DNA from: Candidatus Endomicrobiellum incisitermitis
GTDB lineage: Bacteria; Elusimicrobiota; Endomicrobiia; Endomicrobiales; Endomicrobiaceae
Length of the DNA stretch: 64,000 nucleotides
Assembly: GCA_031275795.1 (NCBI GenBank)
Contig: JAISOG010000005.1
Location: 69-64,068, forward strand
Direction: 5' to 3'
The translations under genes and the position numbers were made by a program. The notes beneath the pieces were generated by a model. The model worked only from the letters and a program-made list of their open reading frames with translations, was not told the origin of the DNA and made no database searches. Below, one piece after another: positions 2,696 to 64,000 of this stretch (its first letter is position 1; each line of letters begins with the position of its first letter).

Positions 2696-3236
2696 GTTTT
2701 TAACTTTAAGAGATAACCAAGATTTTAAAGATTTACAAGGTTATAGTATGGAAATAGCTTGCAAGGCTAGAAAGCTTTCCTTATATAAGAAAGCAAAAAC
2801 TGTCATGGTTTATTTGTCTTGTGGGAGCGAGGTGTCAACAGATTGTTTAGTAAATTTTGCTTTTCAAGACAAAAAAGAAGTGTCTGTTGCTGCTATAACA
2901 GACATTAAAAATTCAACGATGCAAGCTGTAAGAATTTTAAAACTTGAAAATGCAAACCAACTTGTTTGTGGTATAAGACAACCCAAAACAGACAAGAGTG
3001 ATTTTGTAGGCAAAGATTCTATAGATTTAATTTTTGTGCCAGGCATTGTTTTTAGTAAGCAAGGCTACAGAATTGGTTCTGGAAAAGGGTTTTATGATAG
3101 ATGGTTGCAAGATGTCGATTGTGCAAAAACTGTAGGTCTTGCATACGATTTCCAAATTGTCAAAGAAGTTCCCAGTCTAGAATATGATTTGCCTGTTGGG
3201 TGTATAGTTACAGAAAAAAGAGTTGTAAAAGTTTAG
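2616..3236 (+). CDS. 5-formyltetrahydrofolate cyclo-ligase (MTHFS); start uncertain, overlaps the rarA end
   Basis: Family signature RIGSGKGFYDRWL plus the N-terminal KKQIRAKFL motif. Confidence 0.8.
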   Translation: MFRQKKGMRANFVNVCLNLSKKQIRAKFLTLRDNQDFKDLQGYSMEIACKARKLSLYKKAKTVMVYLSCGSEVSTDCLVNFAFQDKKEVSVAAITDIKNSTMQAVRILKLENANQLVCGIRQPKTDKSDFVGKDSIDLIFVPGIVFSKQGYRIGSGKGFYDRWLQDVDCAKTVGLAYDFQIVKEVPSLEYDLPVGCIVTEKRVVKV

Positions 3237-3254
3237 ATAATTGAGGAGTTTTAT

Positions 3255-4799
3255 ATGTGGCCAGTTATTATTGCGTTACTTTCCTTACTCTTAGGCTATG
3301 TTTTACGTTTAATATATGCCAAAGTTAATGCAAGGTCTGCAGAACAGATTTCAGAAAGAATTATAAAAGAAGCTAAAATGATAGCTGAAACAAAAACTAA
3401 AGAGGCTCTTTTAGAAGCTAAAGTTATTGTTGATAAGGAAAGGAAAGACTTTGAGCAAGAGATAAAGGAAAGGAAACAATCTATCCAAAATATGGAAAAT
3501 AGGCTTGGCCAGCGTGAGGAAAACTTATATAAAAAAATTGACTCAGTTGAAAAAAGAGAGAAAGAGTTGCTCGGTAAAGAAAAAGATATTTTTTCAAAAG
3601 AACAATTTTTAACTTCAAAGTTTGCAGAAATAGAGAAAATAAAAGAAGAAGAAAAAGCACTTTTAGAAAAAATTTCCGGGTTTACAAGAGAAGAAGCCAA
3701 AAAGTTGCTTATGAGTAAGATGGAACAAGAAGCCAAGCAAGATGCTGCCATTTTGGCACAAAGGCTGGAACAAGAAGTTAGAGAAAATGCGGATAAAAAG
3801 TCTAAAGAAATTTTATCTGTGGCAATACAGCGTGTAGCTGCAGACCATGCTGCAGATATTACAACGTCTACAATACAAATTCCCAACGATGAGATAAAAG
3901 GAAGAGTTATTGGTAGAGAAGGGAGAAATATTAGAGCTTTTGAGCAAGCTACAGGTGTAGATTTAATAGTAGACGACACTCCAGAAGCTATAACAGTTTC
4001 TGCTTTTGATGGAGTTAGAAGGCAAATAGCAAAAATAGCTTTAGAAAGGCTTATCGCAGATGGTAGAATTCACCCTGCAAGAATAGAAGAAGTTGTTGAT
4101 AAAGTCAGGAGAGAAATGGACCAACACTTAAAAGAGGTTGGAGAACAAGCTGCAATTGACGGTGGTGTTCCGGGCTTAAATATAGAAATTGTTAAACTTC
4201 TTGGCAAACTACAATACAGAACGTCTTATGGGCAAAACCAGCTTCAACATACTTTAGAAGTTACATGGCTTGCAGGTGCTATAGCTGGAGAGTTAGGTCT
4301 TGATGTAATGTTTTGCAAAAAGGCTGCTCTTCTTCACGATTTAGGCAAAGCTGTAGATCATGAAGTTGAAGGTACTCATCACCAAATTTCAGCAGATATA
4401 GCTAAAAAATATGGCGAATCGTCAAAAATGATAAACGCAATTTTATCTCATCATGAAGGTATAGAAGCTCCTGCAAGTCCTGAAGCTTTTGTAATAGCTG
4501 CAGCTGATGCAATTTCTGCTGCAAGACCAGGTGCAAGAAGGGAATCTATAGCACATTATTTAAAGCGTCTTGAAAAACTTGAAAAAGTTGCAAAGGAGTT
4601 TAAGGGAGTTTCTTTGGCTTATGCCATACAGGCCGGAAGAGAAGTTAGAATACTTGTAGAACCAGAAAAAGTAAACGATACTCAAGCTCAAGTGTTAGCT
4701 CGCGATATAGCTAAAAAAGTTGAGCAAGAATTAGAATATCCAGGACAAATTAAAATAACAGTAATAAGAGAAATACGCGCACAAGATATAGCCAAATAA
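3255..4799 (+). CDS. rny: Ribonuclease Y
   Basis: N-terminal TM helix, long coiled coil, KH block [17 protein letters not shown], and HD domain [10 protein letters not shown]. Confidence 0.95.
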
Positions 4800-50803: not shown

Positions 50804-51163
50804 GTGAAGAACGTAAAAGAAGTGTTAAGTTTAAAAATTGTAAACTTTAAAGAAATTAGGTGTTTATTAAACAAAAATATAGCAGCGCTTGTGATTGTTT
50901 TTTGTATGGGAGTAAATGGAATTGTTCCAAAAGAAGTTAATATTAACAAAAACAGTTTAGTTTTAGTGGTTGATTTAGCCAGAGACACTGCAGTTAGAGA
51001 TATTTTTAAACGTTGTAACGAGAGTCTAATCATAATATCTAGTAAAATATCAAAAGAATTACAAATTTTTTTATTTCAAAGCTCTACTAATAGTAGTTAC
51101 ATGTCAGCGCAAAAAAGCACGCAGAACAATAAAATAAATGAATATTCAGGTAGGTTTTTATGA
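50804..51163 (+). CDS. Small hypothetical membrane protein, translationally coupled to the giant ORF
   Basis: GTG start 6 nt after AAAGGAG. One hydrophobic segment, IAALVIVFCMGVNGIV. Its TGA overlaps the giant ORF ATG (ATGA). Confidence 0.55.
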   Translation: MKNVKEVLSLKIVNFKEIRCLLNKNIAALVIVFCMGVNGIVPKEVNINKNSLVLVVDLARDTAVRDIFKRCNESLIIISSKISKELQIFLFQSSTNSSYMSAQKSTQNNKINEYSGRFL

Positions 51164-51288
51164 ACTTTAAAAGTAAGAAGTTGGACTACTTTAAAGAACA
51201 TTGGAAAAGACAGATATTTTTAAAAGGTGTATGTATGATTGTTAGTGCATGCATAATTTTAAACATAATAAATCTGCCAGCATATGCA
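51160..51288 (+). other. Giant ORF: N-terminal signal peptide / signal anchor
   Basis: MNFKSKKLDYFKEHWKRQIFLKGVCMIVSACIILNIINLPAYA: a basic n-region, a hydrophobic core, and A-x-A. Confidence 0.6.
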
Positions 51289-54200
51289 AATACACAAGAA
51301 GATCTTAGGAAGAAAGCTTTTAGCAGGGAAAACAAACAACAAGATGTTCTATATCAAAAAGACACGAGCTTTAATAGTGTTAGTGTGATGAACAGTTTGG
51401 AAGCAAATATAAAGATTGATAAAAAGACAGAAAATATATTTGTAGGCAAAGAGCTAAAAGGATTTTTGTCAAAAGAAAAAGATGGGCAAGGGCGTAGAAA
51501 AGTAATGGTGCATAAGGGAGAAAGTTTTGAGGAAGATGAAGTTTTAACAGCCATGGTAGACAATAAGCTTAAAGGCAGAAAGTCTAGTAGTGGTGTTGAA
51601 ACAAGACAGATATCACAAGATCAAAGATCACAAGATCAAAGATCGCAAGAGCAATCGCTAAGTGTAAAAGAAGGAGAATCCACACGACAACAAAAAGACA
51701 AAAGTGCCCAAGAGCAAGAAAGCAAAGAAGAAGTAAAAGAAGAAACTAGACAGTCTCAAAGCCCAAAAGAAGAAAGAGTAGCAAAACAACAAGGAGCTAA
51801 AGAAGGAGTAGAAAAAGAAGCCATAGAGGAAGCAAGAAGGGAACAAGAGCAAAGATCTAAGCAGGAAAGTCAAGGAGAGCAAGAAGAAAGGGAAACTGAA
51901 AGAGAAGGATCTATCAACGCACAAGAGCAGGTTTTACAAGGACAAAGAGATATAGATGTTGAAAAGGCTAGTTATACATCAAAAAGAGTGCAAGAACTGG
52001 CAGAATCTTTAGAAAAAGAAGAAAAAGATAGAGATAAAGTTATTGAAGAAATAGCAGAACAAACAGGGTTAAGTAAAGAGCAAGTAGAAGAAGAACTCTC
52101 AAAGCTAGATGAAGCGCAAAGAAAAGGAGTAATAGCAGCATTAGCTAAATTGTTTGGGCAAGGGAAAGATATAGTCTACTGCGTGGCAGAGGTTTTAGGG
52201 ACAGTGCTAAATGAAACAAATAAAGGGTTGTTAGGATTTGCAGCTATTTTAGCAGAGGCAATAGCAGGGATATTTGTAAAAAATAACCAAGATTTAATAA
52301 GTGGCAAATCTGAGCAGCTAATGTTAAGTGCGCAAGCAATACAAACAGTACTGAGAAAGTATGGTAAAGAGTATGTTGGGATAGATACAAATATTGATGA
52401 TATAATAGCAGGGCTTAATGTAGGAGAATCAGCAATAGTGCATGTTGGGACAAACCATTTTATAACAATAACAAAAAATGAAGATGGGACGTTTACAAAG
52501 ACAGACATAAACAAGTCTCAAGAAACATTAACAGCAAAGGAGCTTAAGTCAGCTCTGGAAAGGGAGTACGGTTTAAAGGAAGGCCAAACAACAACAGTAC
52601 TTGTAAAAGATGATAATGAGAAGTTTAAAGGGATAAAACGGGTAGATACACTGGGCGAAGTTTTAGGAGCAGAGCGAGAAGAATATGTTGGCATAGAAAT
52701 AAATATTAACCATATAATTGAGGGGCTTAATGTAGGGGAATCAGTAATAGTGTACGTTGTCAGAGACCGTTGTGTAACAATAACAAAGAATGAAGATGGA
52801 ACGTTTACAAAGACAGACAACGTAAACAATACACCAGAAACATTAACAGCACAGGAGCTTAAGCGTGTTATGGTAGAGCAGTACGACTTAAAGGAAGAAC
52901 AAATAACAAGAGTAGTTGTAAGAGCAGATAATGAGAAGTTTAAAAGGATTGTATATGATCTGAGCGAAGCTATAGGAGCACAGCGTCAATGGGATAAGAG
53001 CCAATTTGAAGGGAAATCGCAAGAAGAGTATTATAGGCAATATGGGGAAGAGTCGTACGAAAAGCTTATGATACAGATGTACGGGACAACAAGCTTAAGT
53101 CCAGAACAGTCAAGGGAGTTTGCAGCATTTTATGAAAAATTTTTAGAAGCAGCTATTATAGATATAGATAAAACAATGTCAGATGAAAAGGCATCAGAAG
53201 AATCCAAAGAAGTTGCAAAAGCATTAAAAACGCAGGCAGCAAAAGAGCTAGCAATTATTGAAGGGACGTTGGAAGTGTTAAGAGAACATGTAGGAGTAGT
53301 TAGTGGACAAGTAGGGCAAGTATTGCTTATACAAGAGAGGGCATATCCAAACGAAAGCCAAGGTATTGCAGAAGGAGAGTATTATCAAGTTATTACAATT
53401 TATGCAGACGATCTAAAAGAACAACATAGTATTGTAGGATCAGACGGAAAAAGTGTGTCTATAGAGAGTTATCGAATAAGTAGAGGGTGGTCAATAAGTA
53501 CAAGAGAAGGGGTAAGAGTAACGCGCAGTGATGGCAGCACATATCAAGTTTTTGGTATAGGAGGCAAGTTTGAAGGGATGGAAGTTGGATTTGAATATAT
53601 AGTTGCATATAATGCAAACGGAACATTTTATATGGACGAGCAAGCAAATATATATTTGCTAAATGATACAGATAGAGTTTATCAAGCAAGAGAAGAAAGA
53701 GGATCAAGGCCACCAACAAGTGGGATGTATAAAGGAGCAGCGCCAGAAAGAGAAAATTGGACGCATGGGAAAATAATAGAGACAGAGTCAGGATATATGA
53801 TATATGGAGCAGGAAGCAAAATTACTGTAAGAAAGACAAGCAGAGGATGGGAAGCAGACGCCATAGGAATAGGGACAGAGGCTATGAGAGGATCAGTGTT
53901 AAGAATATCAGCAAATGATCCAAACGGAGTAGCAGCGACGATATTCTTAGATATTAAAGAAGGGTTTATGGTGTATGCAGGGAACTATTGGGTACCTTCA
54001 GATGGATTTATCTGGCAATATGATGAAAGTGTAACTGCAGAGCAAATAGAACAATTCATAAAAAATACGATAAGTACGCAACTAGGATCCAATGCAGAGG
54101 GAATAGAAGAGATAGAGCTAATATATGGAGAAGCAGTAGAAGCAGCAAAAGCAAAAGCAAAAGAAAAAGCAGAAGAAGAAATAGAAGAAGAAAGAAAAAA

Positions 54201-57200
54201 ATATGCATCAGAGATCCCCCCAGCGCAATATAAGGCTGCACATAAAAAAGAGATAGAAGAAAAAGCACAAGAGTACTATGAGGATATATATGAACAAGAG
54301 GTAGCACAAACAAAAGAGGACTTTAAAAACAAAAAAATGCTAGGAGCGCCGTTTTCTACAGAGGCAATTTTTAAGTCTATGGGGATAAGTGCCAAAATCC
54401 ATACAAAAGCAGGGTTTACATATGATGGCACAAAATCTGATGGAGACATATATAAGCTTACAATAGAATCTGCTACAGTACTAGAAATAAAAGAGCAAGA
54501 TGGCGAGTTAGTTACGGTTGCAACAGAAGACATTAGAGTGAAAGCGGTTATAAGTGAAGGAGGTTGGGAGCTTGATAGTGGAGGCACTACACTGACTGAT
54601 AGTATTAAACAAGGGCAAGTGTTTTCATTTGCCACGGTGCTAAATAACGCAGGAAGGCAAATAGTAAATACAAGAGAAATTGAAATAATTACAGGATATG
54701 AAATTAGTGGGCATGATGAGAAGGGTAATAATTATTACGATTATAGTAAACCAAAATATTCAAAAATGGATCCTGGAACTTTTAAAGTAGGAGGAAATAG
54801 CGATGGGAAGTACATTTTAATAAATAATCTTTATATAAGTATTAGCAAGGGGAATTGGGAGGTGATGCAAGAGCAGTCTGGTAGTCAGTACGACAAAACA
54901 GAGGAAAATTGTGCGTATTGGCATGAAGGAGCCCAGATAACAATTTCTAAAAGAGGTAATACGTTTGATATTAGTATAAGTAAAGGGGACCTTACAGTAA
55001 AAAATCTAACAGTTACGTTATATCACAAGATGAACGATAGTAGTGGTGGAGGGGATGATAGTGATGATAGCTATGAAGGACCTAGGATAGAGGGAGCCTA
55101 TATAACAGATTATAAAGAGCTTTACAATAATATGTACTCATATAAAATACAAACAGGAACATTTAAAGGAGTTTCAGGAGAGCAAGGAACGCAAAACAGT
55201 TTAGGAAACTTTATGTTTGTTCCAGGCTCAGACTTCAAAAAAGGTTCGATTATACAAGCAGATGCGACAAGGGCAAAATATGATTCTAAGATAAAGAAGG
55301 ATGGGAGTATAGATGCCTACGGTGCAAAATGGTATGAAAAGCTCAGGGACGGGATAGTAGGATTCTTTAGTATATTAGCATTTTCTTTAATGACTATTTT
55401 TACGTTAGGAGCAATGATATGGGCAAAAGAAATGAAAGGGATGGGCTGGGCAAAAGAATGGGCAGCCATAACGTATGGGTATTGGAATCATGTGGAAGCA
55501 GACGGGAGTAATAAAGAAGCAGTACAAAGAGGGATGGATTTAGGAATAGCAGGACTTGCAGCAGTAGCAATATTAGTAGTAGCGGCAATATCTATAGCAG
55601 GTTCTATTTTTACAGGAGGAGCAAGTATTATAGGAGCAATAGGAGCAGTGGTGGCCCTAGCAGGAGCAGTAGCAAGTTCAGTAAGTGCAATAAATTTGAC
55701 AAATTCAGCAATACAAGCGTTTAGAGCAGGCAAAGGAGGGCAAGGAGCGTTAATGTTGTTTTTTGCATTGCTGACAGTAGTACTTGCATGCGTAGGAGCA
55801 GGGCAGATGGGCAGTACAATAGCGTCTGGGTTGGCAACATTAGGGAAACAATTTTTTATAAAGATGGCAGTAGGAGCAGTAATAGGAGCAGCAGCAGGAG
55901 CAGGAATAGCAGCAGCATCTTATGGTATAAGATATGCTATAGATAAATCAAAAGGTAGAGCTGAGGATTTTGACTGGGCAGAGTTTGGGAAAGAAGTAGG
56001 AATAGGAGCAATAACAGGAGCGTTTGCAGGAGCAGCAGCAGGAGCACAAGTGGCAACTGCAGTGGCAAAAAGTGTAGCAAAAGGAGTTGCTCAGGAGGTA
56101 GCAAAAGGAGTAGGAGAAGGAGTGGCAAAAGCGGTAGGAGAGGAAGTAGCAGAAGATGTTTCAAAAGAGATAACAAAGCAAGTGTCTAAAGAGGTAGGAG
56201 AAGAACTAGCCGGAAGCATAGCTGGAAAAGTTTCAAAAGATGTATTATCACAAATAACGGGAAGTTTAACAAAAGGAGTAAGTGTTGAAGTAGGTAAAGA
56301 AGTAGCAAAAAACGTTGCAAAAGAGGTAGGAGAAGGAGTGGCAGAAGAAGTAGCAAAAGATGTTAGTAAGGAAGTAGCAAAAAATGTTGTAGATGATTTA
56401 GCAACAAATGTAGCAAAAAGTGTAGAAGCGCAAATTGTGAAGGAGTTATCAGGTGAAGTTTCAAAAGAAGTAGGAGAAAAAATAGCAAAAAGTGTAGCAG
56501 AAAAAGTGGCAAAAAGCATATCAAGAAGTATCGCAGAGAAGGTAGGTGAGGAAGTTCCTGTGGGTGTTGGAGAAATAGCAAAAGAGCTGATTTTGGGAGG
56601 GACAAGTTTTAAAAGACAGGCAGGGCAAACCACTTTACAATTTGTAGGTACAGTTACAAAGTCAGTGATAACAGTAGTTAGCAGGGTTGGGATGCAAGCA
56701 TTAAATGGATATATGACGTACATGTCGGCAAAGAGTTTTGTTGATTGTATGGAAAAGGGAGATGTATTGGGCGCAGCCAAAGCATTGTACACACTGGTTT
56801 CCATAAACATAATAATGCCTGTTATGTCAGGCCATTCAGCAATTAAAGAGGACGGGACTTTAAAAGCATCAGATCTAGCAAAAGAAGGTGCAGGAGATTT
56901 GACAAGTACAGCAAAAAATACTGAGGTTGTTACTAAAGGTATAACAATCCAAGGGATGTCAATAGGTTGGAAAGTAGGATCAGTAGCTATAACGACAGTA
57001 GTAGGGGCTGGTGTAGGAGTGGGAATATCTGTTATAATAGATTTAGTAAGTGGTAAAAAGATAAAAGCTAAAGATCTCATAATAGGAGGAGGAGTTGGTG
57101 CGACTATTGGGTTCGGGTTTGGCGCACTTGCAACGAAAGCAGATTGGACTATGCTGGGCAACTCTGTTAAGACATCTCTAGCGAAAACCTTTGCGCCTTT

Positions 57201-60200
57201 TGCAGGGAGGACTGCCAACCTTGTGAGGGGCGCAGATGGTGATATTGTAGTTCAAGAGTTGAGTGAATTTAGTGGATCAACAATGGTTAGGTCCTGGGTT
57301 GGTCTTGTAGGAGGAGGAGCAATAGGAGTAGGTATAGGGGCAGGGATATGGGCAGTTAAAGGCCATAAGAAAGAAGATATGGCCAGGTATCTTATAGTAG
57401 GAGGAGTAGGAGGAAGTGTGGTAGGAGCAGGATTTGCAAATGCGTGGTCATCAGGAGGATATAAAGGAGCGTGGGCCAATTTTAAAGCAAATCCAAAAGC
57501 TGTTTTTATGGAAGCAAAAGGATATCTGCAAGAGTCTCTAGTTAAAAGTGTTACGATGGTGCAAGAGATAAATATGTTCAACACGTATATGGCCTATAGT
57601 ACAGGAATACTAAACCAAATATATAATAAAATTACAGGGGAGTCATTAGCAAATACAGATATTGTTAAATTTATTAATAAAGTAACAGGGATGAGTTTGT
57701 TCAAGTCGCAAGCAGATATAGAAGAAGATACAGAATTTGAAAAGAGGAAGAAGAAAGCACAAGAAAAAGGAGAAGAGTTTAAAGAAGAGGGAGTAGTTTA
57801 CAAAGCGGAGTTTGGACAGGAAGAAGCTAATGCGGTAATAGAGCAAAATTGGGGAAGTCTTACAAGTCCAACGATGTATGCAAGTAATGTAGTGGGAGGA
57901 TTTTTAAAGCCAGTGTTAGGGCCAGCGCTGCAACATTCGCCAATTTTAGGGAGTGTGATGAATGTTATGGAAAGTGCAGGAAGCGTGTCTATAATGCAAA
58001 AGCATAAAATAGTAAGTATGTTTTACAACATGGGAGTAAAAATAAGATTATTAAACATTATTTCAAAGCAAGTGTTTGACGATCCGAATGATCCAGAGGA
58101 TGATCAGATAGCAGAAGTTCTGGGAGGATTTGCATTTATGCAAATGTTTGAGACAATGGCACCTCAAACAATGCCAGCTCAAACCCAGGCAGAAGCAGAG
58201 AAATTTTTAACATCTGGGCAAGAAATTAGTAAGATGGTAGATGGTAACCAAATAAAAGTAGCCCTTGGTGAAGAAGTTTATAATTCAGCGACGTTGCTGA
58301 AGAAGGCAAGTAGTAAAGAAAAGTTTGAAGGTAACTTGAAAACAGTTTGTAGTAATTTAGGGTTAAGTTATGAAGTAGTTAGTCAGGAAGTAGGATTAGG
58401 CAAAAACTATAACCAAATAGTTAGCAGTCTTGTTATAGAGTACGTGTTAAAGGGAGTAAGTGAAAGAGGAGCATTGCCAGAGCAGATTCAAAAGGTTAGA
58501 AGTGAGTTAAATACAATAGTAGAAACAAGCCCAATAATGAAGCAAGGAGCAGGGTTATCTAGCTTTGATATAATTAATTCAATTTCATGTAAACTAAATT
58601 ATTTATATGCAAGTGCAAAAATACTAGAATTAAATGTAGAAGGAATAAGAGTAGAGAGTATTGCTAGTGGGAGTCTTAGTAAGGGAGAATATAAAAAAAT
58701 ACTTCAAGCTCAAGACGCAAAAGAAACAGGTTCAGGAGTAGTTTTACTTATGAACTACCTATCAGGAATAAGTTCAGTAAATAGTTTGCCAATAAATGAG
58801 CTTATAGGAGCAGTAAGTGAATATAATAATAAATTATTTGAGTTAAAGGAAGCAACAAAAGCAACACTAGCAGCACTTAAATTATTAAATCTAAGTGAAG
58901 ATCAAATTAATAGAATAAGTGAAATAGTGTTAAAAGAAGGATCAGTTAGTGCTGAGAATAAGTTAACAGAAGGAGCTAGCCAAGAAATAAGTAAGGTTTT
59001 AGGAAAAGCAGGGACAGAAGTTGTTGTAAAGCTAATAGTTGGAAATCTTGAAAGAAATATCAATATAGGGAGTATAAGAAACGCATTTGAGAATGTATAT
59101 TCTCAAAGAACAAAGATTACAATAGGGTATATGATGAGTATGCTTGCTACATCAGTTGTATCAAAAGAGGATCCTTTGACAAAAGAGTTGATGAGATCAT
59201 TAGAAAAACAATTATTTAGGGCAGATACATATGTTGTGTATACTACTTTTAGAGATAGTCCTGCGCTCAAAGAGGTAGGTGAAATAGAAAGTCTAAGAAA
59301 TATTATTCAACAAGCAAAAGCTGATCTTACATCAACACTTAAGTCATTAAGTGCGTTAAAGTTATCTGATATGCAAATTAATAAAATAAATGAAATAGTG
59401 TTAAAAGAAGGAGCAGTTGGTTCTGACAATAAGTTAACAAGGGAAGCTCAAGAGGGAATACAAGAAGTTGTTGGAAGTAAAGTTGTAACTAATCTTGTAG
59501 TTAGAAATATTGAAGAACTTAGAAGTATAGAAGGGACAAAACTTAGTGCAGAACAGAAAGGGCAGTTAGCATTGCTAGAAGCAATATATATGCCTCAAGA
59601 AATATCTTTAAATACTGCAATTAATAATCTAGTCAAGGAAGTTGCAAGTGGAAAATTGAGTTATGAAGAGTTTAACTTAGTAATAGGGGCATCAGACATT
59701 TTATATTCTAGAGTTACAAGTGTAGAACAAAGGAAGAAACTTGCTGATTATAGGAAGGAGATCACAGTAGCAGCAGTTAATATGACAAAAGAAGTTATCA
59801 AAGAGACAGCTAAATTACAAAAAGAAGGACAAATAACCAAAGGAGAAGCAAAGGGATTTTCAGAAAGTATTAGAAATGCTTTTAATGAAGTAGGCAAAGT
59901 AGGCAATATTAGCAGTTTGATGGGAGCAAATGCAAATGCTAGACGTATGTTAAGCTCTATTAGGGAAAGAGATATAGTGCAAGTAGTAGATGCACAGGGG
60001 AAGTTTTTATCATTTGATACTTCTGCTGGGAAAAATGTGATAGAAGTAAATAGGATAGAAAGTACAGCAAAAGGGATGAAGATAAACCTTACTGTTGACG
60101 GGAAAAATATAGGGGATGTAGTATTGAAAGGGAATCTTGAAGCGCTATCTAAAAACGAAAAGTTAGCACAAGCTATTGTAGAGAAATATCCTAATATGCT

Positions 60201-63200
60201 GGCCACAGATATTGCATTAAATAGAGCTTTAAGTGAGGCTATAAAACCGAATTTAGAAGTTCAGGCCAACAAAATAATAGAAATAGCAAGTAAAGCAGAG
60301 TCATTAGATGCCGATAAAAAAGTGACAAAAGAAGCCAGAATAGAGATAGAAGAAGTTGTAGGGAGTAAAGATATAGCAAACAAGATTATTAATAGTATAG
60401 AAGATGGAAATATTGGAGGCGTAAAAGATGTAGTGTATAGTTCAGTTGAGAAGATAATTGAAGTTTTAAATATGCAAGAAGCGTTTAGTAAAGAAGATGT
60501 TAATAAGTTGACAGAAGTATCCAAGAAGACAATACAAGAGCTAGTGAGAAACAAAGAAGTGGCAAATAATATTATAAGAAGTATAGAAGAAGTTAAGTTT
60601 TCAGATTTAAAAAAGGCACTACAAGAAGCATTATCAGGGCCAGAAGCATTAGTTTTAGGGGAAGGGTCATTTAGGATAGATGGTGAGGGCAAACAAATAG
60701 AAAACAAGGGATATATTTTATCGTCACAAGCAAAGAGTGCAATATTTAATTTATTAGGAGCAACAAATGCGACAAGAGTAATAGATAGTATAGATGCTCA
60801 GTTGAATACAGAAAAGATAGTAAACGACATAAAAACATTTAAGACTGATGCAAGCCAATTAATAAAGTTGTGTTCAGCAAATGTAAACCCTAGGGCAATA
60901 TCGATGTTATTTAGTCATTTAGAAGCAGATATCTCACCGCCAGACGGTAAAATAAAAATGTCTTTAGCAGATTTAGCTATATTGTGTGAGCAAACGCAAA
61001 ATGCAATAGCGCCACAACTAAAAGCGATGATAAATAAGATGATAAATGATAAGATGATAGATGATGAAAAGGAAGTAGAAAAAGCCGTTGACCAACTTTC
61101 TAAGTATTTAAAAGATTCAAGTTTACCTGAGAGAGAGACAATTTTTGAGCAAGTAAAAGAGAAAGTTAAATATAGTAATAATGTTGAAAATTCACAACTG
61201 TACGAAATAGTTAACCAGCATTTGGATGTTAGTAAGATTGTAAGTATTGCTATAGAAGAAATAGAGTTAATGAAAGGAGAAGGAAAATCTGAAGAAGAAA
61301 TAGTTGACAATGCAAATTTAAAGTTTGTTTTTGAAAATTCAGGATACCTTAGTCCGGATGCTTTATTACCAAGATTAAAACTATTAAGAGAGGAAAGTGC
61401 AGGTAAAACAAGATTAGAAATGATACAAGAGGAATTTTATGGAAAAGGAGGATATGTAGAGCAAGCAAAAGGATTTATAGAAACAAATACAATAGAGGTA
61501 GAAGGGAAAAAGAAGTTAAAGGAAGGGACAATAGATAGTTTAAGGGCGAAAGTGATAGCAATGGATTTGGAAGGGAAAGGGACAGAGGCAGTAAATTTGT
61601 TGAGGATAACATTAAATGAGTGTATGAGGCAAGCAGTAGGATTTGGGATAAGAGGATCACAGTCAGAACTAACAACGACATTACAAAATGATATAAATGC
61701 AGCATTGGGGATGGGAGGAGGAAAGACAGTATCCTTAGCATTAGATGCGGCGACGCAAAGGGTGTTGATGGGAAGTGCATTAAATTTAGAGATTTTGGTG
61801 GGCAATAGTGATTTAGAGAATTATGTAGGAGGGAGCTCACAAGCGCGAAAGTTTTTTGAGTTTGTAGGGATGAAAGCAGTAAGTATTAACGACTTTAAAC
61901 CAGAAGGAGGGCAAACAAACATAGGAAAGCTAAAAGAGGCATATCAAGACCCGAATGTAGTAGTGATAATGGACCCGACAATGAGGGGACATATGATGAA
62001 CGAAGCAGTAAGCAGAGGAGGAGAATCTGGGAGGGAACTAAGAGAAGTGTTGGAAAGTGTAAACAGGGTTACAGTAGACGAGGTACATTTGTGGGCGCTG
62101 ACGCGGACAGCAGCAGTAATAGGGGGAGATAACAAGCCACCAGATAAAGGGATAATAAAGAAGGCAGTAAAAATCGGAGATCTTATTAATGCTGAAAAGA
62201 TATATAAGCAGATAATAAAACCAGGAGCGATAGAGAAAACAATTACAATAGAAAAGAAAGAAGTTCTGGTAAAGCGTTTTAACAAAGAAGCAGATCTAAT
62301 AGAAGCGAAAGTGGAAGGGGAATATATAGCAATAATAGGAGAACAAACAGCGAGTATAGAAATAAGGATGTCAAAAGGAATAAGGGATGTATTGATAAAT
62401 AAGATAGGAAGCGCGCCAAAAGGATATACACCCGCAGGGATGTTATACAGTGTGATAAAGGGATTGTTTACAAGTTCAGAGAATGGGGGGATGGCAATAG
62501 GAGAGGACGGGAAAGTAAAACCAGTGGGAGCCACAGGAGTGCAGGAAAACATGGTTATTAATGATATATATTCACAGTTAGGGTTTGCATTAAAGAAAGG
62601 AATAGAGAAGAGAGTGTTTGATATAAGGGGATATATGTCAAAGAGTACGCAAATGAGTAATACAAGCATGCAGACGTCCCTAGCAGCGATATATAGTGGA
62701 GCAAGTGCGCGTATGGTAGGGATATCAGGGACAGTATCAGGGTTGGAGCAGCTAATAATAAACAGGACAGGATCAGGGAAGATATATAATATAACGGGAG
62801 AAAGAGTAGACCCGTCGATGTTTAATAGTGTTATGGAGATAGGGACTGCTTTATCAAAAGAAGTTATAAAAGAAAATCTTAAATCTTTAAGTGAATTGAA
62901 TTTGAATGAAAGTGTAATTAATGACATAGCTGAAATTGTTGCAAAGAAAGGAGCATTAGATGGTAATAACAAATTAACTCAAGAAGCTCAGGAAGAAATA
63001 AAAGAAATAATAGAAAAAGCTAAAGCTATTAAAAATCTTGAGAGGAATAAGGACAGTATAGAGGACAGTATAAGTATAGAGGACAGAATAAAGATTATTA
63101 GTGGAAGTATAGGGGATGGGTTAAGAGCAAAAATAACAAACGTTTTAATAAAAGCAATGCAAGATAAAACATTGTCACCAGACCCAGCATTAAATAATGC

Positions 63201-64000
63201 GCTGCTATTAGGGAAAACACAGGGGACAATAGAAAATTTTAGAAGTGCGGTTAAAAAAGCAATAGAAAATGTAGGAGGGATAGAAGCACTAGATGGGAAA
63301 GTAGAAATATTTGAGTTTACAGACAAGCAAGGGAAATGGACAGGAATAAATGAGAAGAGAGAAGTAGAAGTTAGTGGAGATTTAGGAAATAATATGAAAA
63401 GTATCACAGATGTGGCAAAGAATAAGAATATAAGACGAATAATAATAGCAAATGAGATGGGAGCAACAGGAGTAGATTATCAAGGGAATTATTTAAATAT
63501 AATAGCAGATGCACATTTGATGAGTAATACAGACTTAGCGCAAGCATTAAAGAGGACAGCGCGACCGAACAATTCTTTTAGTAAAGAAGGAGGATTGCAA
63601 AGGTGGACAACAGAAAGGGTAATAATGTACGACAAAGTAAAAGTGCAAAGTGAGTTGGATGCATTTAAAAATAATGGAGTATTTGTAGAGTATGCAAAGA
63701 AGTTGTGGGAAGGAGCAAAAGCAGGTGGTAATATGGAAGATGCAAAAAGTGTCAAATGGTTAGAAGTAATGGAGAAGGGGAATTTTGACATTTCAAATGC
63801 AGAAGTTATAGAGGGTTTGTATAAGTTAAGTGGAGGATATAAAGAAGGGGATAAAATAGATACAAAAAGCCCGGAAGTTATAGATATAGCGATGAAAGAA
63901 GCGATAACATTTATATCAAAGATCCAGGATTTGAGATCAGTAGACGGGTCAATAAGATTTACAATAAATGATTCAATAAGAGACAGGATGGTATTGAGTG
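51160..64000 (+). CDS. Giant multidomain membrane protein, 3'-incomplete (more than 4,280 codons, no stop before the window end)
   Basis: ATG 51160 with GGTAGG 5 nt upstream; an in-frame TAG at 51151-51153 bounds it upstream. I translated every 60-nt line in this frame to 64000 and found no stop. It is absent from the ORF track because it has no stop in the window. Confidence 0.9.
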   Translation, partial: MNFKSKKLDYFKEHWKRQIFLKGVCMIVSACIILNIINLPAYANTQEDLRKKAFSRENKQQDVLYQKDTSFNSVSVMNSLEANIKIDKKTENIFVGKELKGFLSKEKDGQGRRKVMVHKGESFEEDEVLTAMVDNKLKGRKSSSGVETRQISQDQRSQDQRSQEQSLSVKEGESTRQQKDKSAQEQESKEEVKEETRQSQSPKEERVAKQQGAKEGVEKEAIEEARREQEQRSKQESQGEQEERETEREGSINAQEQVLQGQRDIDVEKASYTSKRVQELAESLEKEEKDRDKVIEEIAEQTGLSKEQVEEELSKLDEAQRKGVIAALAKLFGQGKDIVYCVAEVLGTVLNETNKGLLGFAAILAEAIAGIFVKNNQDLISGKSEQLMLSAQAIQTVLRKYGKEYVGIDTNIDDIIAGLNVGESAIVHVGTNHFITITKNEDGTFTKTDINKSQETLTAKELKSALEREYGLKEGQTTTVLVKDDNEKFKGIKRVDTLGEVLGAEREEYVGIEININHIIEGLNVGESVIVYVVRDRCVTITKNEDGTFTKTDNVNNTPETLTAQELKRVMVEQYDLKEEQITRVVVRADNEKFKRIVYDLSEAIGAQRQWDKSQFEGKSQEEYYRQYGEESYEKLMIQMYGTTSLSPEQSREFAAFYEKFLEAAIIDIDKTMSDEKASEESKEVAKALKTQAAKELAIIEGTLEVLREHVGVVSGQVGQVLLIQERAYPNESQGIAEGEYYQVITIYADDLKEQHSIVGSDGKSVSIESYRISRGWSISTREGVRVTRSDGSTYQVFGIGGKFEGMEVGFEYIVAYNANGTFYMDEQANIYLLNDTDRVYQAREERGSRPPTSGMYKGAAPERENWTHGKIIETESGYMIYGAGSKITVRKTSRGWEADAIGIGTEAMRGSVLRISANDPNGVAATIFLDIKEGFMVYAGNYWVPSDGFIWQYDESVTAEQIEQFIKNTISTQLGSNAEGIEEIELIYGEAVEAAKAKAKEKAEEEIEEERKKYASEIPPAQYKAAHKKEIEEKAQEYYEDIYEQEVAQTKEDFKNKKMLGAPFSTEAIFKSMGISAKIHTKAGFTYDGTKSDGDIYKLTIESATVLEIKEQDGELVTVATEDIRVKAVISEGGWELDSGGTTLTDSIKQGQVFSFATVLNNAGRQIVNTREIEIITGYEISGHDEKGNNYYDYSKPKYSKMDPGTFKVGGNSDGKYILINNLYISISKGNWEVMQEQSGSQYDKTEENCAYWHEGAQITISKRGNTFDISISKGDLTVKNLTVTLYHKMNDSSGGGDDSDDSYEGPRIEGAYITDYKELYNNMYSYKIQTGTFKGVSGEQGTQNSLGNFMFVPGSDFKKGSIIQADATRAKYDSKIKKDGSIDAYGAKWYEKLRDGIVGFFSILAFSLMTIFTLGAMIWAKEMKGMGWAKEWAAITYGYWNHVEADGSNKEAVQRGMDLGIAGLAAVAILVVAAISIAGSIFTGGASIIGAIGAVVALAGAVASSVSAINLTNSAIQAFRAGKGGQGALMLFFALLTVVLACVGAGQMGSTIASGLATLGKQFFIKMAVGAVIGAAAGAGIAAASYGIRYAIDKSKGRAEDFDWAEFGKEVGIGAITGAFAGAAAGAQVATAVAKSVAKGVAQEVAKGVGEGVAKAVGEEVAEDVSKEITKQVSKEVGEELAGSIAGKVSKDVLSQITGSLTKGVSVEVGKEVAKNVAKEVGEGVAEEVAKDVSKEVAKNVVDDLATNVAKSVEAQIVKELSGEVSKEVGEKIAKSVAEKVAKSISRSIAEKVGEEVPVGVGEIAKELILGGTSFKRQAGQTTLQFVGTVTKSVITVVSRVGMQALNGYMTYMSAKSFVDCMEKGDVLGAAKALYTLVSINIIMPVMSGHSAIKEDGTLKASDLAKEGAGDLTSTAKNTEVVTKGITIQGMSIGWKVGSVAITTVVGAGVGVGISVIIDLVSGKKIKAKDLIIGGGVGATIGFGFGALATKADWTMLGNSVKTSLAKTFAPFAGRTANLVRGADGDIVVQELSEFSGSTMVRSWVGLVGGGAIGVGIGAGIWAVKGHKKEDMARYLIVGGVGGSVVGAGFANAWSSGGYKGAWANFKANPKAVFMEAKGYLQESLVKSVTMVQEINMFNTYMAYSTGILNQIYNKITGESLANTDIVKFINKVTGMSLFKSQADIEEDTEFEKRKKKAQEKGEEFKEEGVVYKAEFGQEEANAVIEQNWGSLTSPTMYASNVVGGFLKPVLGPALQHSPILGSVMNVMESAGSVSIMQKHKIVSMFYNMGVKIRLLNIISKQVFDDPNDPEDDQIAEVLGGFAFMQMFETMAPQTMPAQTQAEAEKFLTSGQEISKMVDGNQIKVALGEEVYNSATLLKKASSKEKFEGNLKTVCSNLGLSYEVVSQEVGLGKNYNQIVSSLVIEYVLKGVSERGALPEQIQKVRSELNTIVETSPIMKQGAGLSSFDIINSISCKLNYLYASAKILELNVEGIRVESIASGSLSKGEYKKILQAQDAKETGSGVVLLMNYLSGISSVNSLPINELIGAVSEYNNKLFELKEATKATLAALKLLNLSEDQINRISEIVLKEGSVSAENKLTEGASQEISKVLGKAGTEVVVKLIVGNLERNINIGSIRNAFENVYSQRTKITIGYMMSMLATSVVSKEDPLTKELMRSLEKQLFRADTYVVYTTFRDSPALKEVGEIESLRNIIQQAKADLTSTLKSLSALKLSDMQINKINEIVLKEGAVGSDNKLTREAQEGIQEVVGSKVVTNLVVRNIEELRSIEGTKLSAEQKGQLALLEAIYMPQEISLNTAINNLVKEVASGKLSYEEFNLVIGASDILYSRVTSVEQRKKLADYRKEITVAAVNMTKEVIKETAKLQKEGQITKGEAKGFSESIRNAFNEVGKVGNISSLMGANANARRMLSSIRERDIVQVVDAQGKFLSFDTSAGKNVIEVNRIESTAKGMKINLTVDGKNIGDVVLKGNLEALSKNEKLAQAIVEKYPNMLATDIALNRALSEAIKPNLEVQANKIIEIASKAESLDADKKVTKEARIEIEEVVGSKDIANKIINSIEDGNIGGVKDVVYSSVEKIIEVLNMQEAFSKEDVNKLTEVSKKTIQELVRNKEVANNIIRSIEEVKFSDLKKALQEALSGPEALVLGEGSFRIDGEGKQIENKGYILSSQAKSAIFNLLGATNATRVIDSIDAQLNTEKIVNDIKTFKTDASQLIKLCSANVNPRAISMLFSHLEADISPPDGKIKMSLADLAILCEQTQNAIAPQLKAMINKMINDKMIDDEKEVEKAVDQLSKYLKDSSLPERETIFEQVKEKVKYSNNVENSQLYEIVNQHLDVSKIVSIAIEEIELMKGEGKSEEEIVDNANLKFVFENSGYLSPDALLPRLKLLREESAGKTRLEMIQEEFYGKGGYVEQAKGFIETNTIEVEGKKKLKEGTIDSLRAKVIAMDLEGKGTEAVNLLRITLNECMRQAVGFGIRGSQSELTTTLQNDINAALGMGGGKTVSLALDAATQRVLMGSALNLEILVGNSDLENYVGGSSQARKFFEFVGMKAVSINDFKPEGGQTNIGKLKEAYQDPNVVVIMDPTMRGHMMNEAVSRGGESGRELREVLESVNRVTVDEVHLWALTRTAAVIGGDNKPPDKGIIKKAVKIGDLINAEKIYKQIIKPGAIEKTITIEKKEVLVKRFNKEADLIEAKVEGEYIAIIGEQTASIEIRMSKGIRDVLINKIGSAPKGYTPAGMLYSVIKGLFTSSENGGMAIGEDGKVKPVGATGVQENMVINDIYSQLGFALKKGIEKRVFDIRGYMSKSTQMSNTSMQTSLAAIYSGASARMVGISGTVSGLEQLIINRTGSGKIYNITGERVDPSMFNSVMEIGTALSKEVIKENLKSLSELNLNESVINDIAEIVAKKGALDGNNKLTQEAQEEIKEIIEKAKAIKNLERNKDSIEDSISIEDRIKIISGSIGDGLRAKITNVLIKAMQDKTLSPDPALNNALLLGKTQGTIENFRSAVKKAIENVGGIEALDGKVEIFEFTDKQGKWTGINEKREVEVSGDLGNNMKSITDVAKNKNIRRIIIANEMGATGVDYQGNYLNIIADAHLMSNTDLAQALKRTARPNNSFSKEGGLQRWTTERVIMYDKVKVQSELDAFKNNGVFVEYAKKLWEGAKAGGNMEDAKSVKWLEVMEKGNFDISNAEVIEGLYKLSGGYKEGDKIDTKSPEVIDIAMKEAITFISKIQDLRSVDGSIRFTINDSIRDRMVLS
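52141..52515 (+). other. Giant ORF: putative papain-fold (C39-like) cysteine peptidase module
   Basis: FGQGKDIVYCVAEVLG (Gln then Cys341, nt 52180-52182) ... LRKYGKEYVGI ... ESAIVHVGTNHFITITKNEDGTFTKTD (His433 at nt 52456-52458, downstream Asp). This parallels the C39 order Q..C ... H(F/Y)VV ... D. Confidence 0.5.
52369..52992 (+). repeat. Giant ORF: tandem 2 x 312-nt (104-aa) duplication
   Basis: Unit 1 is EYVGIDTNIDDIIAGLNVGESAIVHVGTNHFITITKNEDGTFTKTD...DNEKFKGI...LGAERE. Unit 2 is EYVGIEININHIIEGLNVGESVIVYVVRDRCVTITKNEDGTFTKTD...DNEKFKRI...IGAQRQ. Long stretches are identical at the nucleotide level. Confidence 0.85.
55351..56040 (+). other. Giant ORF: first cluster of Gly/Ala-rich hydrophobic (TM-like) segments
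   Basis: GIVGFFSILAFSLMTIFTLGAMIW; LGIAGLAAVAILVVAAISIAGSIF; ASIIGAIGAVVALAGAVASSV; ALMLFFALLTVVLACVGAG; MAVGAVIGAAAGAGIAAA; VGIGAITGAFAGAAAGA. Confidence 0.7.
56041..56568 (+). repeat. Giant ORF: 44 consecutive 4-residue repeats [small]-x-x-[V/I/L]
   Basis: GAQV ATAV AKSV AKGV AQEV AKGV GEGV AKAV GEEV AEDV SKEI TKQV ... AEKV GEEV PVGV. Strict 12-nt periodicity with no indel over 528 nt. Confidence 0.9.
56941..57450 (+). other. Giant ORF: second cluster of glycine-zipper hydrophobic segments
   Basis: VGSVAITTVVGAGVGVGISVIIDLV; LIIGGGVGATIGFGFGALA; WVGLVGGGAIGVGIGAGIWAV; YLIVGGVGGSVVGAGFANAW. Confidence 0.7.
58876..59004 (+). repeat. Giant ORF: helical module, copy A
   Basis: LKLLNLSEDQINRISEIVLKEGSVSAENKLTEGASQEISKVLG. 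Confidence 0.8.
59356..59478 (+). repeat. Giant ORF: helical module, copy B
   Basis: LKLSDMQINKINEIVLKEGAVGSDNKLTREAQEGIQEVVGS. Confidence 0.8.
61561..63600 (+). other. Giant ORF: SecA-like DEAD-motor ATPase region (NBD1 / insert / NBD2)
   Basis: Walker A GMGGGKT (61708-61728), Walker B DEVH (62077-62088), GISGTVSG, ANEMGATGVDY (63448-63480) and QALKRTARP (63541-63567). These are collinear with the E. coli SecA motif blocks. Confidence 0.7.
62896..63018 (+). repeat. Giant ORF: helical module, copy C (inside the ATPase region)
   Basis: LNLNESVINDIAEIVAKKGALDGNNKLTQEAQEEIKEIIEK. Confidence 0.8.

Follow-up and report, generated by a model that had tools for sequence, protein, structure and literature searches.

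Full-length giant genes of Omnitrophota, Actinobacteriota and other phyla encode numerous transmembrane regions (West-Roberts et al. 2023, bioRxiv 10.1101/2023.11.21.568195). Most of these genes carry divergent SecA DEAD helicase and preprotein-binding domains without a wing or scaffold, C39 peptidase domains are often present, and the SecA-like part comes after a transmembrane anchor. The authors proposed that the SecA-like part exports the giant protein itself or accessory proteins (bioRxiv 10.1101/2023.11.21.568195). When long Omnitrophota proteins are clustered by architecture, PF07517 and PF03412 are the two largest groups (bioRxiv 10.64898/2026.06.07.730766), and SecA-like helicase-related domains have been noted in large Amoebophilus effectors (Zhang et al. 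2012, PMC3482391). The present analysis focuses on a SecA-like ATPase module within a giant open reading frame (ORF) of Candidatus Endomicrobiellum incisitermitis (Elusimicrobiota; Endomicrobiaceae). The window analyzed is a stretch of 64,000 nucleotides (nt) of contig JAISOG010000005.1 from GenBank assembly GCA_031275795.1. Members of Endomicrobiellum are flagellate endosymbionts with genomes that average 1.13 Mbp and 32.3% GC (guanine plus cytosine), and the Endomicrobia genome paper mentions neither giant proteins nor SecA (PMC11257099). The results support the module as a deeply diverged, SecA-like lineage of the superfamily 2 (SF2) proteins that has the architecture of SecA and SecA as its closest fold. 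The preference for SecA is real but modest.

The SecA-like module and its family

The module spans residues ~3485-4157 (61612..63630), as defined by an alignment of relatives, an AlphaFold model, Foldseek and hhalign. All features are on the + strand unless noted, and residues of the giant protein are counted from the ATG at 51160. The original prediction placed a SecA-like motor about 3,500 residues into the giant protein, which agrees with the position of Walker A at residue 3,521. All of the peptides it quoted are present in one uninterrupted + strand ORF (frame-1 translation of 61561-63600, no stops), and their collinearity with the sequence blocks of E. coli SecA was reproduced by the best high-scoring segment pair (HSP) of BLASTP and by hhalign on SecA residues 71-415.

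The core of the first nucleotide-binding domain (NBD1; 61702..62127) aligns to E. coli SecA 99-227. It contains Walker A with GGGKT (ALGMGGGKTVSLAL, residues 3515-3528, nt 61702-61743), motif Ia with LEILVGN (LEILVGNSDLENYV, residues 3543-3556, nt 61786-61827), the FEFVGM peptide (ARKFFEFVGMKAV, residues 3562-3574, nt 61843-61881), motif Ib with DPTMRGHMMN (AYQDPNVVVIMDPTMRGHMMNEA, residues 3594-3616, nt 61939-62007), and Walker B DEVH with the RTAAVIGG stem (VTVDEVHLWALTRTAAVIGG, residues 3637-3656, nt 62068-62127). An alpha/beta insert of 193 aa (62128..62706), placed by hhalign and the secondary structure of the model, then separates motif II from motif III at the position of the preprotein cross-linking domain (PPXD) of SecA. 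About 190 aa had been predicted between the Walker B region and GISGT, and the measured gap from ...AVIGG to ARMVG is 193 aa. DEVH and GISGT are 214 aa apart, and in E. coli SecA the corresponding DEVD and GMTGTA are 180 aa apart. The motif III region, TSMQTSLAAIY...ARMVGISGTVSG (62662..62742), is equivalent to SecA ITFQNYFRLY..GMTGTA, and its GISGT peptide (ARMVGISGTVSG) occupies residues 3850-3861 (nt 62707-62742).

NBD2 (63187..63630) was located by the model, hhalign and its motifs. Its first strand, ALLLG, is at 63199-63219, and motif V reads NEMGATGVD (IIIANEMGATGVDY, residues 4094-4107, nt 63439-63480). Motif VI, QALKRTARP (residues 4128-4136, nt 63541-63567), is followed by the strand RWTTERVIMY. 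The loss of the Arg in the SecA GRGTD motif had been noted earlier and holds for the window and for close relatives, none of which has an Arg at the position of E. coli R509. Motif V in this clade is N-E-x-G-x-T-G, and some distant members have N-x-R-G, in which the Arg is two residues upstream. The motor is followed by a helical region of ~300 aa that is conserved throughout the family, with a conserved block F.IQD..R...VI.PL. Only its start is in the window (63631..64000), which ends with ...IRFTINDSIRDRMVLS, 144 residues past motif VI. This region may be scaffold-like; its match to SecA 780-815 was weak (E 0.0077, probability 5%).

To identify relatives of the module, 1.84 billion cluster representatives were searched exhaustively with phmmer. 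The search identified 50 relatives, 13 of them below 1e-30 and the best at E 1e-144. Most are within proteins of 2,000-7,000 aa (for example, 6,999, 6,133, 4,826, 6,942, 6,651, 6,158 and 4,878 aa). The original prediction proposed a check for homologues fused to similar N-terminal regions in other genomes, and most of the long relatives have transmembrane-like clusters upstream of the motor. In a scan of GTDB species genomes, the closer relatives were from metagenome-assembled genomes of Endomicrobiaceae/Elusimicrobiota from termite guts and the rumen, and the closest orthologue was from Ca. Endomicrobiellum cubanum (locus L006).

An alignment of 17 sequences with 21-49% identity to the window (A1) was used to identify conserved positions. 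The A1 residues G55, K56, D174, E175, H177, G388, T392, N632, G638 and Q662 are invariant, and T57, R666 and R669 are kept in at least 90% of the members. These positions correspond to Walker A (GK[T]), Walker B (D-E-x-H), motif III (G...T, SGT), motif V (N..G.TG) and motif VI (Q...R..R). Judged by this conservation, the motif matches are not due to chance. Because exactly the catalytic residues are conserved at such divergence, the module is probably an active SF2 ATPase.

Relationship to SecA

Structural comparison indicates that the module resembles SecA. The AlphaFold model made from the family alignment without templates had a predicted local distance difference test (pLDDT) score of 76.7, a predicted template modelling score (pTM) of 0.53 and two alpha/beta RecA-like halves; the model made from the single sequence was unusable (pLDDT 39.8). 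The two RecA-like folds that the original prediction called for are thus both present in the model. Ranks 1-10 of the Foldseek comparison with the PDB were all SecA or SecA2 (1tf2, 5k9t, 1tf5, 3jv2, 5eul, 2ibm, 6t4h, 3iqy and 2ipc), with E from 3.4e-10 to 5.7e-8 and TM-scores normalized to the query (TMq) of 0.38-0.40. The next matches were helicases that carry insertions, namely MDA5, LGP2, RIG-I, DinG and MrfA, starting from E 8e-8 with TMq of 0.29-0.36, and the E-value margin of SecA over MDA5 was ~240-fold. Foldseek returned 123 matches at E<=0.001, and the 50 listed were all SecA or another SF2 helicase or translocase. The closest solved structures to the module are therefore those of SecA.

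Profile comparison pointed in the same direction. The SecA/SecA2 reference profile was built from 14 sequences taken from plasmid and chromid records. hhalign aligned the family to this profile with a probability of 95-96% and E of 2e-8 to 1.6e-9 over 326-329 columns. The alignment placed family residues 19-415 on E. coli SecA 71-415, which includes NBD1, the whole PPXD and motif III, and with relaxed settings it extended to SecA 58-597, the full motor. Smaller comparisons were weaker. The single E. coli SecA sequence was matched in the correct region but weakly (E 0.0096, probability 4%), NBD2 alone placed motif VI on SecA 554-582 (E 0.006), and the comparisons with only the PPXD, only NBD2 or only the tail were each weak alone. 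As a control, a profile of five DEAD-box sequences was used. It gave a probability of 75% and E 2.5e-5 over 135 columns that stop at motif II, and a separate match of 52 columns covered motifs V-VI. A size-matched SecA profile of five sequences gave 92.7% and E 4.2e-7.

Only SecA was found to share two sequence signatures with the family. One, R-T-x-x-[VI]-I-G-G, comes after Walker B and reads RTPLIISG in SecA. The other, DG.V.PV...D...Q...A..G, is within the 193-aa insert, where DGKVKPVG...NDIYSQLGFALKKG of the window aligns in hhalign to SecA DGEV.IVDE...SDGLHQAIEAKEG. The top ten Foldseek matches, the hhalign alignment through the insert at the PPXD position and the RT stem signature together bear out the prediction that the module is SecA-like rather than a generic SF2 protein. 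Membership in SF2 itself is evident from the two RecA-like domains and motifs I, II, III, V and VI. In DEAD-box proteins motif III is ~25-35 residues past DEAD and the match to DEAD plus Helicase_C is continuous, whereas here the 193-aa insert lies between.

Standard searches did not detect this relationship. No SecA, helicase or P-loop match was obtained for the module or for the whole 4,280-aa protein by hmmscan against Pfam and NCBIfam or by phmmer against PDB sequences, and PADLOC likewise gave no SecA or P-loop match. A word-indexed search of 5.8 billion proteins, with the single sequence and with the alignment, gave no match even though relatives exist, and tblastn of plasmids also gave none. 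BLASTP against E. coli SecA had as its best HSP the stretch from Walker A to FEF(L/V)G, with a pairwise E of 0.12. The homology with SecA is visible only with a family profile or a structure model.

A proposed membrane-tethered motor and its alternatives

The module is most likely a membrane-tethered, ATP-hydrolysing motor of the SecA type that binds a polypeptide and moves or remodels it at the cytoplasmic face. By analogy with SecA, we consider this a slightly better than even prospect. The domain order follows that of SecA, with NBD1, an insert of ~190 aa at the PPXD position, NBD2 and a conserved helical region. Most likely, a long loop bracketed by transmembrane-like segments would keep the motor at the cytoplasmic side of the membrane, because a cluster of such segments lies ~1,400 residues before the motor and more of them follow the motor in relatives. 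Those ~1,400 residues are largely helical and contain repeats. Upstream clusters occur in the window protein and in most of the long relatives, and the downstream segments of relatives begin 600-1,100 residues past motif VI. This layout supports the predicted fusion in cis, with the motor placed after a membrane region of the same polypeptide. As in SecA, ATP would drive the binding and the movement or remodelling of a polypeptide. This substrate could be a partner protein or segments of the giant protein itself, whether the motor acts in cis or between copies. The fold, the conserved catalytic residues, the order of the domains and the membrane-flanked layout are observed, whereas we infer the cytoplasmic location, the ATPase activity and the polypeptide substrate of the motor.

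Several results weigh against this proposal. SecA_DEAD (PF07517) and SecA_PP_bind (PF01043) match neither the window nor any of the 16 relatives, and no SecA family was matched at E<=1. P-loop profiles also gave no match. The original prediction had named these profiles as a check and the lack of a significant match as a refutation, so that its first test fails when it is read literally. When the relatives match Pfam at all, the matches are weak and are to Helicase_C (three members, best 2e-5) and DEAD (two members). The family profile identified eIF4A and RecQ among PDB sequences (E 0.03-0.06) and no SecA. When compared by itself, the 193-aa insert falls on the expected part of the PPXD, SecA 308-364, but not significantly (E 0.57). 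The family scores no higher against SecA than SecA does against DEAD-box proteins, and by sequence these two distances are about equal. A scaffold or wing of the SecA type was not demonstrated after NBD2 in the hhalign comparison of the tail, and the motif V Arg of SecA (E. coli R509, NMAGRGTD) is absent from the window. Neither Sec genes nor conserved neighbours were seen beside the giant gene, either here or at the six related loci for which genes were called. Lastly, the ribosome reaches the motor only long after it has made the N-terminal exported region. This order speaks against a simple export of that region in cis and makes its cis export during translation unlikely; it is more plausible that the motor would act between copies of the protein, on segments downstream of it or on a partner.

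Alternatively, the module could be a membrane-tethered SF2 helicase or translocase that depends on nucleic acid and has an accessory insertion domain like those of RIG-I/MDA5, DinG or Cas3. It would then resemble SecA only through SF2 ancestry and a coincident insert site. The matches to Helicase_C and DEAD, the return of eIF4A and RecQ instead of SecA from the PDB profile search, and the 75% probability with the DEAD-box profile agree with such a protein, as does the DExH box, which is typical of helicases. MDA5, LGP2, RIG-I and DinG also follow closely in Foldseek (from 8e-8), and single members had faint matches to Cas3, BrxH and Snf2 in PADLOC and NCBIfam. However, the ten best structural matches are all SecA or SecA2 with higher TM-scores, the SecA alignment runs without a break across the insert and motif III but the one with DEAD-box proteins ends at motif II, and the RT..(V/I)IGG stem and the D...Q...A stretch are common to SecA only. 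In addition, the Pfam/NCBIfam scan detected no nucleic-acid-binding domain across 4,280 residues, and the context is that of a membrane-embedded giant protein. A nucleic-acid-dependent enzyme is thus considered unlikely. Of comparable low probability is an ATP-dependent conformational switch or assembly scaffold that binds and hydrolyses ATP to regulate or organize the cytoplasmic region of the giant protein without translocating a polymer, or a catalytically weakened relic. The motif V Arg has been lost in the clade of the window, the module tolerates a 93-aa insert that is absent even from the closest orthologue, and the loci examined have no conserved partner genes, all of which would suit a switch or relic. 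Against this, no sequence has lost the Walker A Lys or the Walker B Asp-Glu, and at least 90% of the sequences keep the two Arg residues of motif VI. Catalytic residues kept at 21-49% identity imply selection for hydrolysis, and the PPXD-position insert and the post-motor helical region are also conserved.

In a more far-reaching reading, the giant protein would be a complete machine for export or insertion within one polypeptide. Its membrane-tethered, SecA-derived motor would work with the Gly/Ala-rich transmembrane bundle of the same protein and thread parts of the protein or host-directed cargo across the endosymbiont membrane independently of SecYEG. We regard this as quite improbable. 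If true, it would explain the retention of a ~16.5-kb gene, which is ~1.5% of a ~1.1-Mb genome. It was also considered that the motif matches arose by chance in a low-complexity giant ORF or that the ORF is not a real gene, as might be suggested by the lack of any Pfam, NCBIfam, PDB-sequence or word-indexed protein match. This explanation has almost no probability and is refuted by the 12.8-kb open frame in DNA of 32.6% GC, 50 homologues with E down to 1e-144, the full-length collinear orthologue in Ca. E. cubanum, the invariant catalytic motifs and a confident model with SecA as its top matches. Two further candidates were rejected. A housekeeping SecA does not fit a module that fails the curated SecA models (PF07517 and NCBIfam, none above threshold), is embedded in a giant protein and lies in a window without sec genes. 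A defence helicase was also rejected, and PADLOC gave no defence-system match.

A repeat-derived insert between NBD1 and NBD2

The window motor has a lineage-specific helical insert of ~93 aa (residues 3895-3987, 62842..63120) that is absent from all relatives. In the relatives the alignment jumps from residue ~3894 to 3988 with only ~8-10 aa between, and the Ca. E. cubanum orthologue has 8 aa. The AlphaFold model shows four helices ahead of the first NBD2 strand. The original prediction was correct that the motor is interrupted by a helical insert with a copy of a repeated module, but the alignments and the model show ~93 aa, not ~200 aa, at the NBD1/NBD2 junction before the first NBD2 strand and not within NBD2.

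The repeated helical module of ~70 aa has the consensus ...L.LS....N.I.EIV.KEG....DNKLT.EAQE.I.E.. and occurs four times in the protein, at residues 2563-2633, 2719-2791, 3012-3082 and 3899-3975. Three copies are within nt 58846-60405 and the fourth, at nt 62854-63084, is inside the ATPase. By its identity of 38-46% with the three upstream copies, the junction insert is an intragenic copy of this module. Since the closest orthologue lacks the fourth copy, a recent intragenic duplication into the motor domain is indicated, and the motor evidently tolerates it. A faint similarity between the insert and the SecA PPXD stretch VNLTERG...KEGIMDEGESLY (E 0.14 in BLASTP and 1.8 in hhalign) was treated as noise.

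Extent and layout of the giant protein

A stop at 51151 bounds the open frame, the first ATG is at 51160, and the translation remains open to the end of the window. The giant ORF (51160..64000) therefore has at least 4,280 codons, and its reading frame continues past the window end. The GC content of the window is 32.6%. The frame of the Ca. E. cubanum orthologue has 5,516 codons and is collinear with all 4,280 window residues, with 46-74% identity over the main collinear segments. Because of this longer collinear frame, the window protein probably runs ~1,280 residues beyond the window end. An exact-match scan of GTDB genomes for the last 71 bases of the window gave no match.

A hydrophobic segment at residues 19-37 (51214..51270), found by a hydropathy scan and from the sequence, follows a Lys/Arg-rich start and is a putative signal peptide or signal anchor. 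Directly after this segment there is a low-complexity tract rich in E, Q, K and S (SQDQRSQDQRSQEQ..., KEE.KEE...; 51600-52060, residues ~150-300). A C39-like peptidase domain is then found at 52324..52551. The Peptidase_C39 profile is sub-threshold in the window (E 0.01), scores E 3.9e-4 in relative P0001, and is above threshold in the homologous segment of relative P0002 (7e-5, 23.1 bits, cut-off 22); the C-terminal tail of P0001 also gave E 0.017. In the surrounding C39-like region (52147-52860, residues ~330-565), a candidate Cys is in ...IVYCVAEVLG... and a candidate His is in ...GTNHFITITKNEDG.... A partial tandem duplicate at residues ~500-565, after the domain, repeats its GLNVGES...ITKNEDGTFTKTD half.

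The hydropathy scan also identified ~8 Gly/Ala-rich transmembrane-like segments at residues 1398-2065 (55351..57354). Between two groups of these segments there is a run of short amphipathic repeats such as VAK.V.EEV and GKEVAKNV (56047-56560, residues ~1630-1800), for which a family match was not found. No glycosyl hydrolase, dockerin or other enzymatic domain was detected in the scan of the whole protein. Two long antisense ORFs are within the giant gene, at 56091-57218 (-) and 61944-62972 (-), of 375 and 342 aa. Their translations are of low complexity and both are probably artefacts of the biased codon composition of the giant gene, not genes. An ORF of 119 aa (50804-51163, +) precedes the giant ORF and its end reaches 4 bases into the region of the first ATG codon; in the related locus L005, an ORF of 198 aa likewise precedes the giant gene.

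Gene neighbourhood and related loci

The housekeeping genes in the window are infB, rbfA, truB, ribF, ftsW, leuS, dxs, tuf, nusA and pgi. A neighbouring ABC-F gene is also present in read set SRR14710916. P0021, which is distantly related to the motor, is within a 3,924-aa protein (locus L038, 1-7336 and 24797-27775). Next to its gene there are Tad/secretin/RcpC/TadE pilus genes on one side, and on the opposite side an 11,468-aa ORF begins. The locus resembles the published link of giant genes to type II/IV secretion-like clusters. At locus L003 (1-17425, ENA scaffold_2885), relative P0003 (2,474 aa) is preceded by an ORF of >4,119 aa, and the end of this ORF overlaps it by 17 bases. The two are probably one giant gene of >6,500 aa that is split by a frameshift or a sequencing error. 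In addition, a Pontibrevibacter plasmid (L028, 2366-4351) encodes a truncated SecA-like protein of 661 aa that is annotated as a DEAD/DEAH box helicase and matches SecA only to residue ~650. Its gene lies between a PqqD-family gene and genes for resistance-nodulation-division (RND) adaptors. Similar matches (H24 and H27) are annotated as prepilin peptidase fusions.

Significance

These results extend the giant-protein SecA-like fusion to Endomicrobiaceae. The retention of a ~16.5-kb gene in a genome of the ~1.13-Mbp type would argue for strong selection. A whole clade of motors is invisible to the Pfam SecA_DEAD profile, so surveys that use this profile undercount such motors, and the 17-sequence alignment could seed a new profile. 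The architecture is compact (~5,500 aa, few other domains, transmembrane-like segments that bracket the motor) and simpler than that of the Omnitrophota proteins of 30,000-85,000 aa, which would make experimental testing easier.

Comparison with known systems

Canonical SecA and SecA2 (E. coli b0098; 1tf2, 5k9t, 6t4h, 5eul) are the best structural match of the window module, and motifs I, Ia, Ib, II, III, V and VI are collinear between them. The insert of ~190 aa at the PPXD site, the RTxx(V/I)IxG stem, the distal PPXD D...Q...A stretch and the RxGRxG of motif VI are further points of likeness. However, the identity is 17-18% over the hhalign columns and the module fails the Pfam and NCBIfam SecA models. 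It also differs in having DEVH instead of DEVD, no equivalent of R509, and no demonstrated helical scaffold domain (HSD), helical wing domain (HWD) or C-terminal linker. Furthermore, it is embedded in a giant membrane protein, whereas SecA is a soluble protein of 800-900 aa.

DEAD-box and DExH SF2 helicases such as eIF4A, RhlE and RecQ have motifs I, II, V and VI in common with the module, are likewise built from two RecA-like domains and give weak profile matches. They differ in that motif III of the module is 193 aa past the motif II region and not ~30 aa, the alignment breaks at motif II, and their Foldseek rank is below that of SecA.

The Amoebophilus effectors and a protein of Legionella geestiana are likewise very large proteins with a SecA-derived motor from bacteria that are host-associated or intracellular. 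The Legionella protein is a 2,948-aa hypothetical protein that takes up most of a 13.8-kb plasmid (L030, NZ_CP041715.1, match 3001-4500). Unlike the window module, which is not detectable directly, it was found by tblastn with E. coli SecA (25% identity, E 4e-27).

The published giant proteins are the closest described systems. The differences are in detection, host and size. The published proteins are recognized with Pfam SecA_DEAD, whereas the window family is missed by both PF07517 and PF01043. The Omnitrophota hosts are predatory ultra-small bacteria, and the present host is a member of Endomicrobiaceae (Elusimicrobiota) that is probably a flagellate endosymbiont with a small genome. The window protein has ~5,500 aa as compared with >10,000-85,000 aa, no glycosyl hydrolase, dockerin or other enzymatic domain was detected in it, and it has the extra repeat-derived insert at the NBD1/NBD2 junction. 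The likenesses are a giant ORF with many transmembrane segments, a motor located after the transmembrane regions, no demonstrable wing or scaffold, a C39-type peptidase in the same protein (above the cut-off in P0002, sub-threshold in the window) and high divergence. In addition, the distant relative P0021 adjoins Tad/secretin genes and an 11,468-aa ORF. Since SecA-like domains downstream of transmembrane regions in giant proteins were already published, the novelty of the locus is lower than the original prediction assumed. The window protein matches the published kind in every architectural respect tested, and its motor is filed as a very divergent addition to the described giant-protein SecA-like domains.

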